A DNA stretch of 55,727 nt, taken from Promethearchaeota archaeon (GTDB lineage Archaea > Asgardarchaeota > Lokiarchaeia > Sigyniarchaeales > SOKP01). Within the stretch, counting starts at the first letter, position 1; each line of letters begins with the position of its first letter. The translations under genes were made by a program, and so were the position numbers. The notes below the pieces were generated by a model. The model was not told the DNA's origin. It saw nothing but the letters and a program-made list of their open reading frames with translations, and made no database searches. Of this stretch, positions 52,175-55,727 are shown piece after piece. The stretch covers positions 1-55,727 of the forward strand of contig JAHLWH010000212.1 in the NCBI GenBank assembly GCA_019058015.1, in the 5' to 3' direction.

Positions 52175-52608
52175 TTAAACTTTAATTTCTCGAATCTTAC
52201 TGGCAATTTCTTTTACTTCTTGAAAATCTTTTACTAATATCGCCTTAATTAAATCTATTTTTAATTTTTTGACCTTTTGTAAGACTAAAGTATATTTAAA
52301 ATTAATATCTGCAGATATATCATCTATATGATGATAAAGTACTTTAGCTTGATCTTCTCATGAACAATAAGGATTATTATTTCATACCCTAATTTTGCAA
52401 CTTTAGACATATCACAGTAGCTAAGTATAATTTGATTCTCCAGATTAATTTCCATTAACTCTTCATTTTGATTTTCCTGCCTATAAGCATGAGTCATATA
52501 TATTTTGTTAATTAAATTTTGTGATAAATCAAGATTTTCAGGATGTTTAATCTCTAAAACCGCACCCACCTTCTTATCCCAACTAAATAATGCAATGCCT
52601 ATAACCAT
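52175..52608 (-). pseudogene. Longin/uDENN-like N-terminal domain gene, frameshifted or internally deleted near 52357
   Basis: Begins MVIGIALFSWDKKVGAVLEIKHP...IYMTH. After VHE a second frame (52357-52175) continues 60 aa (EDQAKVLYHH...IREIKV*). Confidence 0.55.
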
Positions 52609-52755
52609 TAATTAAACCAAATTTTTAAGTTAATTTTGTCAATAAATTGAATAAATACTTTATTTCTTAGTTATTTAATTTGATTATTACTAAATAGATT
52701 ATGGAATTATGTAAAAGAAACGCTTTCTGTAACTAAGAAAAGAGAATTTTAAAAT

Positions 52756-53631
52756 TTATAGATATGTATATAAAATTTCAAAATCACTAAAATCAAATGG
52801 TTTCAAAATATATCCATCTGCACCAGCATGTTTAATTTTTTTCTCAACTTCTGAACTTGGAATTGCCGTTAAGAAAAAAACTGGAATGTCTTTAAGATTC
52901 TCGTCAGATTTTATTATTTCACAAACATCATATCCATTTATATCTGGCAATATTATATCTAATAATATTAATTTTGGAGGATTTACTTTTAATTCTTCTA
53001 TTCCCTTAGAACCACTAATTACCCCTCTACTAGAATAACCTTTACTTTCAAAAAAGGTGGTTAATAATTTTATAGTCGATGGGTCATCTTCAATTAATAA
53101 AAGGTCATATTGTGTCTTTCCATTTTCTCCTTTTTCCAAGACTTCCTTTATTTTATTTTCAAGAAATATACTTTTATTAAAAATCTCCTTAATTTTTGAT
53201 AATACATCTTCTTTTATATCATCCTTATAATTTTCAAGCAGTAACTGTGAAAATCCTTTTATGGTAGTTAAAGCCTCTTTTAAATCATGAGAAATATCAG
53301 TAATTGATTTTAAAGGTCCTGATTTTTTAAGTTTTTCATCAACACCTCCTCTTAATTTCTCATTAATAAAAAAATCCACCGCATCTCTTATCAATTTTGA
53401 AATTGAAGAATATTTGCTACTTTCAATAAAATTTTGCCATTTTTCTTTAGTTTCTTCCGATATATAGAGTGATATTCTCTCCTTATCTCTATCATAAATC
53501 TTTTCTCCTCTTTTCCACTTTTTAAATCCTTCAGTTATGATACCACGCCAAACAGCATATTTTCCTGTCTCTTTTTCATATTGTTCCATTTCACTATTTT
53601 TTTTTTCATTATTCAAAATTGAAATCACCAA
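52756..53631 (-). CDS. RHH-HisKA-receiver regulator (copy 1; likely start TTG 53616)
   Basis: YEKETGKYAVWRG motif; RHH-like RISLYIS...SISKLIRDAV; H-box SHDLKEALTTIKGF; receiver IEDD, LLDIILPDING, KPF. Confidence 0.85.
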   Translation of the reverse strand: MVISILNNEKKNSEMEQYEKETGKYAVWRGIITEGFKKWKRGEKIYDRDKERISLYISEETKEKWQNFIESSKYSSISKLIRDAVDFFINEKLRGGVDEKLKKSGPLKSITDISHDLKEALTTIKGFSQLLLENYKDDIKEDVLSKIKEIFNKSIFLENKIKEVLEKGENGKTQYDLLLIEDDPSTIKLLTTFFESKGYSSRGVISGSKGIEELKVNPPKLILLDIILPDINGYDVCEIIKSDENLKDIPVFFLTAIPSSEVEKKIKHAGADGYILKPFDFSDFEILYTYL

Positions 53632-53751
53632 TAAAAAAGGAAAGATTCACTAAACTTATTACGTTTCTAGATTATTATTATCACGAAGTATAATATAAGT
53701 TTTTTCAATTATTAGCACAAAATTTAATTTTATTTTTCCAATTTTAATTTT

Positions 53752-54081
53752 ATGATGCTTATATTAATAAACGCAATTAATTACACTCCTCCTGGAGGAG
53801 AAATTAAAATCTTTTCTGAAGTAAAATCTAACTTTTTTATAATCTCAATAGAAGATAATGGAATTGGGTTCTCCGCTGAGGAAAAGAATCGATTATTTAA
53901 ACAATTTGGAAAAATTGAAAGATATGGTCAAGGTTGGGATGTTTGAATTGAGGGTACAGGGCTTGGTCTATATATTGCGAAAAAGATTATTGAATTACAC
54001 GGGGGAAATATCTGGATGGAATCAGAAGGAAGAAATAGAGGAAGTAAATTTTATTTTTCTCTTCCCATTTTAAAAGATTAA
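53752..54081 (+). pseudogene. Isolated HATPase_c domain of a histidine kinase, 5'-truncated, with in-frame TGA at 53944-53946
   Basis: [71 protein letters not shown]. Confidence 0.85.
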
Positions 54082-54084
54082 AAA

Positions 54085-54945
54085 TTAATGTAAGTATTCC
54101 AATATTATATTAAAATCCGAAAAATCAAAAGGTTTTGAGATATAACCATCTGCTTTTGCTTTTTTAATAAGGGGCTCAACTTTTAAACTTGATACAGCAG
54201 TTAATAGAAAGATGGGGATATTTTGATATTCTTCATTAGATTTTATTATTTTGCAAACTTCAAATCCATTAATATCAGGTAAAATAATATCCAATAAAAT
54301 TATTTTAGGAATATTTCTCTTTAATTCATCCAATCCTTTAGAACCACTAATGACACCTTTACAACTATAACCCTTCCTTTCAAAAAATGATGTTAATAAC
54401 TTTATTGTTGATATATCATCTTCAATTAGTAAAATGTCATATTGTGATTTACCAATAAAAGAGTATCCTAACGATTCATTAATCTTGTTTTCAAGGAAGA
54501 TGCTTTTATTAAAAATTTCTTTTATTTTTAAAATGATTTCCTCATTGAGTTCTTCCTTATAATTTTCAATTAATAATTGAGAGAATCCTTTTATTGAAGT
54601 TAATGCTTCCTTTAAAACATAAGAGATATCTGAAAGATATCTAAGTTGTTCATCTTTAGTATAATTCTCTTGGGCTATTACTTTTATTTTTTTTTCAATG
54701 AAATTATTTACTGCATCCCTTATTAGTTTAGAAATTGAAGTATATTTTGAATTTCTTACAAAATTCTGCCATTCTTCTTTAGTTTCTTTAGATATATAAA
54801 GAGCTATTCTCTCCTTAAACCTATCATAAATTTTTTCTCCTCGTTGCCATTTTTTAAATCCTTCAGTTATTACTCCACGCCAAATTGCGTATTTGCCGGT
54901 CATTTTTTCATATTTTTCCATTTCTTCAGTTTTTTTCTCATTCAT
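54085..54945 (-). CDS. RHH-HisKA-receiver regulator (copy 2; H-box His replaced by Tyr)
   Basis: Paralogue of 52756..53631; SYVLKEALTSIKGF; receiver residues intact. Confidence 0.85.
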   Translation of the reverse strand: MNEKKTEEMEKYEKMTGKYAIWRGVITEGFKKWQRGEKIYDRFKERIALYISKETKEEWQNFVRNSKYTSISKLIRDAVNNFIEKKIKVIAQENYTKDEQLRYLSDISYVLKEALTSIKGFSQLLIENYKEELNEEIILKIKEIFNKSIFLENKINESLGYSFIGKSQYDILLIEDDISTIKLLTSFFERKGYSCKGVISGSKGLDELKRNIPKIILLDIILPDINGFEVCKIIKSNEEYQNIPIFLLTAVSSLKVEPLIKKAKADGYISKPFDFSDFNIILEYLH

Positions 54946-55374
54946 TCTTTCTCAAAAATTTTAAGTATGAGGATTTCAATATTGTATCAGAATCAAAGAA
55001 ATCAATTTAATAATTGAAATCATTTTTTTACAAGAAACCAAATTCCATACTGCCCTACTAATTCAATGCATTAATAAACACGCATTATTCAATTTTATTT
55101 TGTCTTTTTATATATAGGGTTTTACACACAAAAAACTGCATATTTGTAATTATTATATAATTCTTTTAATTTTTAAATATTTGTTATAATAGAGTAAAAA
55201 TTTAAAATGAAGAATTTAATAAACACATTACTACAACAAATATTTAATTACATTGTTTATTACTAATATTTTGTATCAATTTATTATCAAAGAGTGTTGT
55301 TATAGTAATATGCAAACATTTGATGATGAAAAGATGCGTATTTCATCATTACAATAATATAGAGTTAAGGTTTT

Positions 55375-55727
55375 ATGGAAAAACGAGTATATCTTGTGGA
55401 AGATATTGAAAAAAACATGAAATTATTTAAAGCAGTCCTAAATACAATGCCTGATATTGAAGTTATAGCAGAAACCCATGGTGGTCGAGCTTTTGAATTT
55501 TTAAAGGCAGATTGTCCAGATCTAATAATCTTAGACATTCAACTACCAGAAATGAGTGGAATCGATATTTGTAAAGAACTCCGTAAAATGGATAAATTTA
55601 AAGAGATTCCAATTATTGCCGCCTCTTCTTCTCCAGTTGAAGGTAATAGGGAATCCATATTTGCTAGGGCTGGTTTTAATAAATCGCTCTCAAAACCATT
55701 AAACCTCAAGGAATTCAAAGAAGTTAT
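55375..55727 (+). CDS. Response regulator receiver domain (DivK/CheY-like), runs off the window end
   Basis: Manual translation: MEKRVYLVEDIEKN...PDLIILDIQLPEMSG...IPIIAAS...LSKP. Confidence 0.9.
   Translation, partial: MEKRVYLVEDIEKNMKLFKAVLNTMPDIEVIAETHGGRAFEFLKADCPDLIILDIQLPEMSGIDICKELRKMDKFKEIPIIAASSSPVEGNRESIFARAGFNKSLSKPLNLKEFKEV

Follow-up and report, generated by a model that had tools for sequence, protein, structure and literature searches.

The stretch analyzed here, termed the window, comprises 55,727 nucleotides of contig JAHLWH010000212.1 from the Promethearchaeota archaeon assembly GCA_019058015.1 and is AT-rich, with 23-33% G+C in 2-kb windows. Close to its right-hand end two genes lie in tandem on the minus strand, copy 1 downstream and copy 2 upstream, and their products align without gaps across 284 amino acids with 69% identity (pairwise alignment of the two open reading frames). 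Each protein is composed of an N-terminal mini-module (N-module), a ribbon-helix-helix (RHH) segment, a HisKA-type helical hairpin (DHp) and a receiver (REC), and all four parts are real. Judged from sequence, both copies belong to an Asgard-specific response-regulator family, RHH-DHp-REC, of which they are the only members in this genome (94% complete). The domain identities of the two proteins, their conservation and evolutionary history, and the decay of a kinase gene between them are established, and the proteins are probably dimeric RHH transcription regulators in which DNA binding is set by phosphorylation of the receiver and the DHp serves as stalk and phosphotransfer site.

The alignment used throughout holds 154 family members from 81 loci (80 fetched and the window), from which separate profiles were built for each part. 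The receivers of copies 1 and 2 score 75 and 72 bits with Pfam, the E/D/D/D/T/K positions are present in 153-154 of the 154 members, and in the full-length model of copy 1 the receiver superposes on RR468 (Foldseek). The Pfam HisKA model falls just short of its cut-off of 26.9 bits in copy 1 (26.0 bits) and is weak in copy 2 (14.4 bits). The family DHp profile searched against the PDB aligns positions 2-65 with residues 20-83 of HK853, covering the whole DHp with both helices at E 5e-10, and also matches DivL (PDB code 4q20) at E 3.6e-4; the corresponding hidden Markov model (HMM) matches a PAS kinase on contig C237 (20588-22699) of the same genome at E 3e-15. In copy 2 the hairpin fold is present with Tyr-109 in place of the phospho-acceptor histidine, and in the copy 1 model the REC begins ~8 residues past the DHp. 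No HATPase_c domain was found by Pfam in either polypeptide, and the only one near the copies is a broken remnant on the opposite strand. Among longer proteins no fused forms, for instance with HATPase_c, were found, which is weak evidence, also as regards the derivation from a hybrid kinase put forward in the initial annotation, and NCBIfam holds no model for the family, its matches being REC or DHp pieces far under their cut-offs. The family resembles HK853/RR468 of Thermotoga maritima (PDB codes 3dge and 4jas) in both DHp helices and in the receiver, whereas HK853 carries a CA domain and the H-box H-E-L-R-T-P, and the family has H-[AT]-L-K-E-P and no CA domain. The H-box consensus of HisKA kinases is H-[ED]-x-x-[TN]-P; both copies deviate from it and lack HATPase_c, and in these two respects they depart from a canonical HisKA-type sensor kinase.

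Foldseek with the full-length model of copy 1 returned receiver matches only, and therefore the N-terminal half was folded alone. The AlphaFold2 model of residues 10-98, computed from a 120-row alignment (predicted local distance difference test, pLDDT, 88.5), shows a helix, a hairpin, a second helix, an extended KERISLY strand that is unpaired in the monomer, and two further helices. The top matches to this model in Foldseek and in an independent VIA search are almost all RHH domains, including ParD2, NikR, TacA, PrpA, PutA-RHH on operator DNA, CopA, Arc and omega, with Z-scores of 5.7-3.7 and a root mean square deviation of about 2 Å over 44-50 residues. The Pfam RHH_1 model scores 21.2 bits on the isolated copy 1 segment, over its cut-off of 20.5. 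The residues of the K-E-R-I-S-L-Y strand are kept in 149-153 of the 154 members, and the sole other protein of the genome matched by the family RHH HMM is a NikR-like protein with an RHH and a C-terminal domain (contig C83, 27611-28009, plus strand; E 8e-4). A PDB search with the RHH profile gave marginal results, the E 0.46 of a CopG-family protein being on a par with S1 matches that look like chance, and ESM Atlas look-ups with the RHH part and the N-module gave no usable matches. One relative carries the Joint Genome Institute name 'CheY-like ... CopG/Arc/MetJ family transcriptional regulator'. The arrangement of an N-terminal RHH followed by a regulatory domain is shared with NikR (PDB codes 1q5v and 2bj1) and PutA-RHH (PDB code 2rbf), matched at Z 5.0-5.2; in these the sensor binds metal or substrate, whereas that of the family is a DHp-REC phosphorylation module. 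The initial annotation, made from the letters alone, had described a shared N-terminal motif, an RHH pattern, a HisKA-like helix pair, intact receivers, the absence of an ATPase domain and a divergent receiver gene at 55375, and all of these are borne out, the RHH on the isolated segment and the shared motif as a separate module that its HMM also finds elsewhere in the genome. The coordinates are collected in Table 1.

Table 1. Positions of the two regulator genes, their parts and the adjoining features in the window
Feature	Position	Strand	Remarks
Copy 1, RHH-DHp-REC regulator	52756..53631	-	291 amino acids, TTG start; alternative ATG 53587-53589; downstream gene of the pair; His115 kept
Copy 1 N-terminal mini-module, residues ~13-47 (helix, beta-hairpin, helix)	53491..53595	-	HMM match and models
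Copy 1 ribbon-helix-helix, residues ~48-92	53356..53490	-	Strand K50-E51-R52-I53-S54-L55-Y56 near-invariant family-wide
Copy 1 DHp/HisKA hairpin, residues ~108-167	53131..53310	-	H-box SHDLKEAL; His115 codon CAT 53287-53289
Copy 1 receiver, residues 178-283	52783..53100	-	D182, D183, D225, T255, K277
Copy 2, RHH-DHp-REC regulator	54085..54945	-	286 amino acids; upstream gene of the pair; Tyr109 replaces the H-box His
Copy 2 Tyr109 codon TAT	54619..54621	-	His in the L014 orthologue
Copy 2 receiver, residues 171-278	54112..54435	-	D176, D177, D219, T249, K271
HATPase_c remnant (N-box to G2-box) of a PAS histidine kinase, pseudogene	53728..54081	+	In-frame TGA 53944-53946; deletion junction near 53762-53772
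Stand-alone receiver gene, divergent	55375..55725	+	66.7 bits with Pfam; cut by the window end; L014 orthologue 122 amino acids
Divergent promoter region between copy 2 and the receiver-only gene	54946..55374	.	Without a site for the family's conserved spacer element

The best 120 database relatives show 59-95% identity with query coverage of 71-100% (about 95% or more in all but one), and every organism name given among them is Asgard (Promethearchaeota/Lokiarchaeota, Thor-, Hod- and Odinarchaeota). A search of genome contigs gave 169 relatives, and the 80 loci kept from these are all Asgard or uncultured-archaeon records. The two copies are 59-65% identical to Loki-, Thor-, Hod-, Odin- and Hermod-type members, and the family as a whole is ~60% identical across the Asgard classes sampled. 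The family H-box reads S-H-[AT]-L-K-E-P-L-T-[ST]-I-K-G and is invariant or nearly so; the histidine is present in 151/154 members and the proline in 146/154, with Ala or Thr at H+1 in 141/154 and Glu at H+4 in 153/154. In the window copy 1 has H-D-L-K-E-A and copy 2 Y-V-L-K-E-A, with alanine at H+5 in both. To our knowledge, archaeal response regulators with a recognizable DNA-binding output are rare and this family is one of few, which makes it a good entry point into how phosphorelay signaling is coupled to transcription in the closest prokaryotic relatives of eukaryotes.

Contrary to the novelty put forward in the initial annotation, the architecture is no new kind of system and has been catalogued before: the census of Galperin, Makarova, Wolf and Koonin (2018) lists the RHH-HisKA-REC design in Lokiarchaeum sp. 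GC14_75 (PMC5847659, section 23), and it is thus in print, though uncharacterized. The entry is a single sentence, and the article text, its supplementary tables not included, gives no function, pairing, context or N-terminal module (PMC5847659). A 2023 survey of Asgard kinases tabulates one Lokiarchaeum 'HisKA; REC' protein, with no comment in the portion of that article available to us (PMC10343646). As far as the census text describes it, the GC14_75 entry shares with the copies the domain order, the phylum-level group and the absence of HATPase_c, and every feature of this kind that was tested is present in both copies (RHH, DHp hairpin, REC D/D/D/T/K, no HATPase_c and Asgard orthology), the H-box histidine in copy 1 only. 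The window pair differs from the entry as described there in being derived, both copies belonging to the downstream clade and lying away from the TFIIB-type gene (TFB), with alanine for the H-box proline and, in one of them, tyrosine for histidine. The same census, in its sections 7 and 13, groups archaeal proteins that bear HisKA and lack HATPase as 'nonenzymatic HK-like proteins', among them REC-PAS/GAF-HisKA regulators such as AF_1472 (PMC5847659); phospho-acceptor, phosphotransfer or phosphatase roles are proposed for these by its authors, and none is reported as studied in the text consulted. AF_1472-type proteins, as outlined there, resemble the family in having a DHp with a conserved histidine and no ATPase, and differ in that they have no DNA-binding domain and carry the REC N-terminal to the HisKA, in place of the order RHH-DHp-REC.

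Among the 81 loci 69 hold a same-strand tandem pair, 4 a pair on opposite strands and 8 a single copy, some of the latter on short contigs. On a FastTree tree of the 154 proteins the label upstream or downstream changes just twice, and therefore the pair is an old duplication. The prevalence of the tandem arrangement, the two ancient clades and the identity of the DNA-reading strand in both are what would be expected if the paralogues paired with one another through RHH and DHp as an obligate heterodimer, the Tyr copy of the window acting as a non-relaying partner in an asymmetric regulator. Such a heterodimer, which is compatible with the dimeric regulator proposed above, is a possibility to which we give a minor share of belief: the eight loci with a single copy speak against an obligate partnership, and so does the window's genus, in which both copies derive from the downstream clade so that the ancestral partner is gone while the system persists.

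The eight proteins of the window and of loci L014, L015 and L016 form one clade (support 100), nested within the clade of downstream paralogues (support 99). Because the window-genus proteins all fall in the downstream clade, either the ancestral upstream gene was lost and the downstream gene duplicated again, or the upstream gene was overwritten by conversion. Alanine replaces the H-box proline in all eight. The surroundings have changed as well. In the family at large 57 of 81 loci have a divergent TFB gene upstream, and JAB-like, DUF2110 and profilin-like genes are neighbors in 60, 50 and 44 of the 81, the usual place in the 77 canonical loci being beside TFB. The window pair lies beside neither TFB nor JAB, orthologues of which are found on contigs C177 and C238 without an adjoining regulator, and in this genus the pair has moved. 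Its neighbors are a receiver-only gene and a kinase gene, joined in relatives by two Gtr1/RagA-like GTPase genes; each of the four loci of the genus has a divergent stand-alone receiver gene next to the pair. Outside the genus a kinase or receiver-only gene is found nearby at one locus only, L081.

Between the two copies the initial annotation had overlooked a remnant of a histidine kinase, an HATPase_c segment with an in-frame TGA (35 bits with Pfam) that occupies one plus-strand frame and is without the start of the CA domain. At L014, where copy 1 is 96% identical, a whole 668-amino acid PAS-PAS-HisKA-HATPase_c gene lies between the copies. The window, L015 and L016 share a deletion of 1796 bp, with an overlap of ~11 nucleotides at the junction, which took the first ~560 codons of the kinase together with the region upstream. 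In L015 and L016 the remnant is an open frame of 109 codons; at the position of the window TGA the relatives have a Gly or Arg codon, and the L016 remnant has its G2-box altered from GLGL to GLDL along with other changes. The ratio of nonsynonymous to synonymous substitution rates (dN/dS) is 0.40-1.30 for the remnant, 0.20-0.36 for copy 1 and 0.21-0.49 for copy 2. The interpretation of the TGA as a selenocysteine codon or other recoding was ruled out by the Gly or Arg codons of the relatives and by the further damage in L016.

The placement of an HATPase_c segment between two genes that carry a DHp without an ATPase, and the open frame in L015 and L016, might suggest a split kinase in which the small frame provides the regulators' DHp with an ATPase in trans. 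This is scarcely credible and is contradicted by the data, as the frame is what the deletion spared at the 3' end of a complete kinase gene, is missing the beginning of the CA domain, carries a nonsense codon in the window and a changed G2-box in L016, shows raised dN/dS, and has no equivalent in any of the 77 canonical loci.

The tyrosine of copy 2 has a recent origin. The residues given in the initial annotation are correct, with His-115 (CAT) in copy 1, Tyr-109 (TAT) in copy 2 and alanine at H+5 in place of the proline in both, but the view of these as features of the design does not hold when the histidine is kept in 151 and the proline in 146 of 154 members and the tyrosine is confined to three close genomes. 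The three proteins with tyrosine are the upstream copies of the window, L015 and L016, and the change is a single CAT to TAT transition, the upstream copy of L014 having histidine. The pattern is a recent local loss and not a design of the family; its association with the death of the neighboring kinase is suggestive. DivL of Caulobacter has a conserved and functional tyrosine at this position and keeps its CA domain. The tyrosine at the exact phospho-acceptor position, together with recognition of the DivL DHp by the family profile, would fit a pseudokinase in which the Tyr copy has evolved to sense phosphorylated receivers, in the way that DivL senses DivK~P. The clade-wide conservation of a DivL-type tyrosine is not seen here, where 3 of 154 members have it, all from a single young lineage and without a CA domain, and this explanation is likewise contradicted by the data and very improbable.

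Copy 2 is a young, locally degenerated duplicate, yet it is no pseudogene, being intact and under purifying selection. The locus offers a natural experiment, in that the neighboring kinase gene and the histidine of copy 2 have both been lost and copy 2 is still constrained, which separates the function of the histidine from that of the rest of the protein. The kinship of the two copies is mosaic: copy 1 is nearest to L014 with a synonymous divergence (dS) of 0.056, and copy 2 has a dS of 0.070 to L016 and 0.235 to L014. The deletion and copy 2 are common to the window, L015 and L016, unlike the kinship of copy 1 with L014, and the mosaic suggests recombination within the locus between related strains.

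The spacers between the paralogues contain a conserved element, G[AG]TAAAAAATTAC, which directly follows a TATA-like TTTATAAA and is a candidate operator. The element is present in 49 of 69 inter-paralogue spacers, with 50 of its 54 sites on the gene strand. The regions that precede the first gene contain it in 5 of 69 cases, and the remaining intergenic regions of these loci in 4 of 303. A similar TGTAAACAAT site is often located ~20 nucleotides beyond it in the spacers of loci L017-L093, for example L017 5665-5922. The repeats in the two promoter regions of the window are short, AT-rich and unremarkable, judged without a shuffle comparison.

The proposed mechanism of the RHH-DHp-REC proteins as phosphorylation-controlled DNA-binding regulators draws these features together, and we infer from them that the proteins dimerize and bind DNA, which way the phosphoryl group travels and which kinase donates it. 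The dimer would be held by two obligate dimerization modules, the RHH, which needs a partner strand to complete the DNA-reading ribbon, and the DHp, which makes a four-helix bundle; the prediction of a full-length copy 1 homodimer (score 0.31 against a mark of 0.42) speaks neither for nor against dimerization. The RHH would bind operator DNA, and a separate kinase would phosphorylate the C-terminal receiver on Asp-225 (copy 1) or Asp-219 (copy 2), altering through the short DHp-REC linker the geometry or oligomerization of the RHH heads and hence transcription. The likely kinase in this lineage was the PAS kinase encoded between the copies, intact in L014 and destroyed in the window. Because there is no CA domain, the proteins cannot autophosphorylate, and the near-invariant H-box most likely presents a docking and phosphotransfer surface for a receiver, be it the protein's own, that of the paralogue or the stand-alone receiver at 55375. 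The departure at H+1 and H+4 from the kinase consensus fits a constrained hairpin that may no longer autophosphorylate or act as a phosphatase. Copy 2, being still under purifying selection, would now act simply as an RHH-REC regulator that has no His relay. The initial annotation had proposed a DNA-binding phosphorylation-controlled regulator with the DHp as dimerization or phosphotransfer module, of which the four-part architecture stands and the regulatory role is plausible.

Several observations weigh against this mechanism. On whole proteins the RHH_1 model scores 17.3 bits in copy 1 and 13.5 bits in copy 2, under the cut-off, and just 8 of 60 isolated RHH segments match it at E<=0.01. 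The Z-scores of the fold matches are modest, at most 5.7, which is to be expected of a 45-residue domain, and the list of matches is consistent with an RHH. The full-length monomer model has a predicted template modeling score of 0.44 with low inter-domain confidence and draws the RHH strand as a low-confidence helix. The spacers used to train the matrix for the spacer element are also those in which its occurrences were counted, and the loci share ancestry; the region 52601-55400 of the window contains no site scoring >=8, the best being 7.4 on the opposite strand at 54076. The association of the tyrosine with loss of the kinase is a single evolutionary event. The residues at H+1 and H+4 are atypical of a catalytic DHp by the kinase motif, and the histidine could be structural. 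Our literature search found no study that characterizes the family and no biochemical data on any member.

Spo0B and ChpT are kinase-derived helical hairpins whose histidine passes phosphate on with no ATPase activity; their CA-like domain is degenerate, and they are not known to have an RHH or a receiver. The family could by analogy be a histidine-phosphotransferase hub, in which the DHp histidine is the main site, phosphate is shuttled between receivers and the RHH-like head serves dimerization or partner binding and not DNA. The histidine in 151 of 154 members within a nearly invariant H-box, the missing CA domain, the divergent stand-alone receiver at 4/4 loci of the window's genus and an H-box without the residues needed for autokinase and phosphatase chemistry all agree with such a hub. 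It is nevertheless unlikely, given that the RHH strand is invariant and alternates polar and hydrophobic residues as in DNA-reading ribbons, that the fold matches include DNA-bound RHH domains, that copy 2 has lost its histidine and remains under purifying selection, and that 77 of the 81 loci are without a receiver-only or kinase gene nearby, L081 being the sole exception. No match to Spo0B or ChpT by sequence or fold turned up in the searches with the family.

The N-module extends over ~35 residues with the core xYExETGKxAIWRGxxTxxFxxW and is modeled as a helix, a beta-hairpin and a helix. Its HMM finds two further proteins in the same genome. The first, a 258-amino acid protein on contig C233 (L007 1213-1989, minus strand), has two tandem copies of the module followed by a C-terminal zinc ribbon with a weak TFIIB-type match, and no other recognizable domain. 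The second is subunit A' of RNA polymerase (contig C204, 21330-24260; L094 534-650, minus strand), in which the C-terminal tail is matched at E 2.8e-5 and ends in a lysine-rich linker and then one copy of the module. A profile search of 1.84 billion representatives gave 407 proteins at E<=0.001, a single protein containing as many as 8 stretches, and 20 of the 150 matches listed were scanned with Pfam. Among these 20 there are 5 with Ras/Arf/Rag-type GTPase domains, one of which also has a receiver, and one fragment of Rpb1 domain 4-5 (P0169) with three copies of the module in its tail and acidic linkers between them. The others comprise 2 Na/Pi cotransporters, one each of a NosD beta-helix, a BBS-like propeller, a Cap4-LRR-reverse-transcriptase and a zinc-ribbon protein, and 8 without a Pfam family. 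The distribution marks the N-module, at the level of sequence, as a separate, mobile mini-domain. The 415-amino acid protein P0129 combines an Arf-like GTPase, an N-module and a receiver very like that of the RHH-DHp-REC family, the RHH and DHp being missing, and has the appearance of a GTPase recombined with a regulator.

For the N-module the searches turned up neither a relative of solved structure nor a Pfam family. Its profile gives nothing meaningful against the PDB (the best match is a xylanase at E 1), and the VIA and Foldseek lists cover model residues 39-89 only and not this part. The N-terminal domain of RNase H1 (Cauli_VI), which the two-copy protein matches at 18.9 bits and thus under the cut-off, was dropped as a relative, since only 1 of 55 segments matched it at E<=0.1. 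As a speculative and rather doubtful proposal, the N-module may be an undescribed Asgard docking domain that brings regulators, small GTPases and the tail of RNA polymerase A' to a common partner or surface. If so, the RHH-DHp-REC proteins would be factors gated by phosphorylation whose docking code is also that of RNA polymerase, a primitive parallel to recruitment via the tail of a polymerase.

Downstream of the pair the open reading frame 52324-52608 (minus strand, 94 amino acids) corresponds to the first 88 residues of a 435-amino acid Gtr1/RagA-like GTPase gene present in full at L014 and L015, and the last 59 codons of a second, 501-amino acid RagA-like gene remain in a different frame at 52178-52354 (minus strand); compared with L014 the window has lost ~2 kb across both GTPase genes, a second deletion at the locus. 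On contig C272 (37227-39539, minus strand) a histidine-kinase frame has one in-frame TGA within a 779-amino acid open frame and may represent another broken kinase, or else an error in the assembly.

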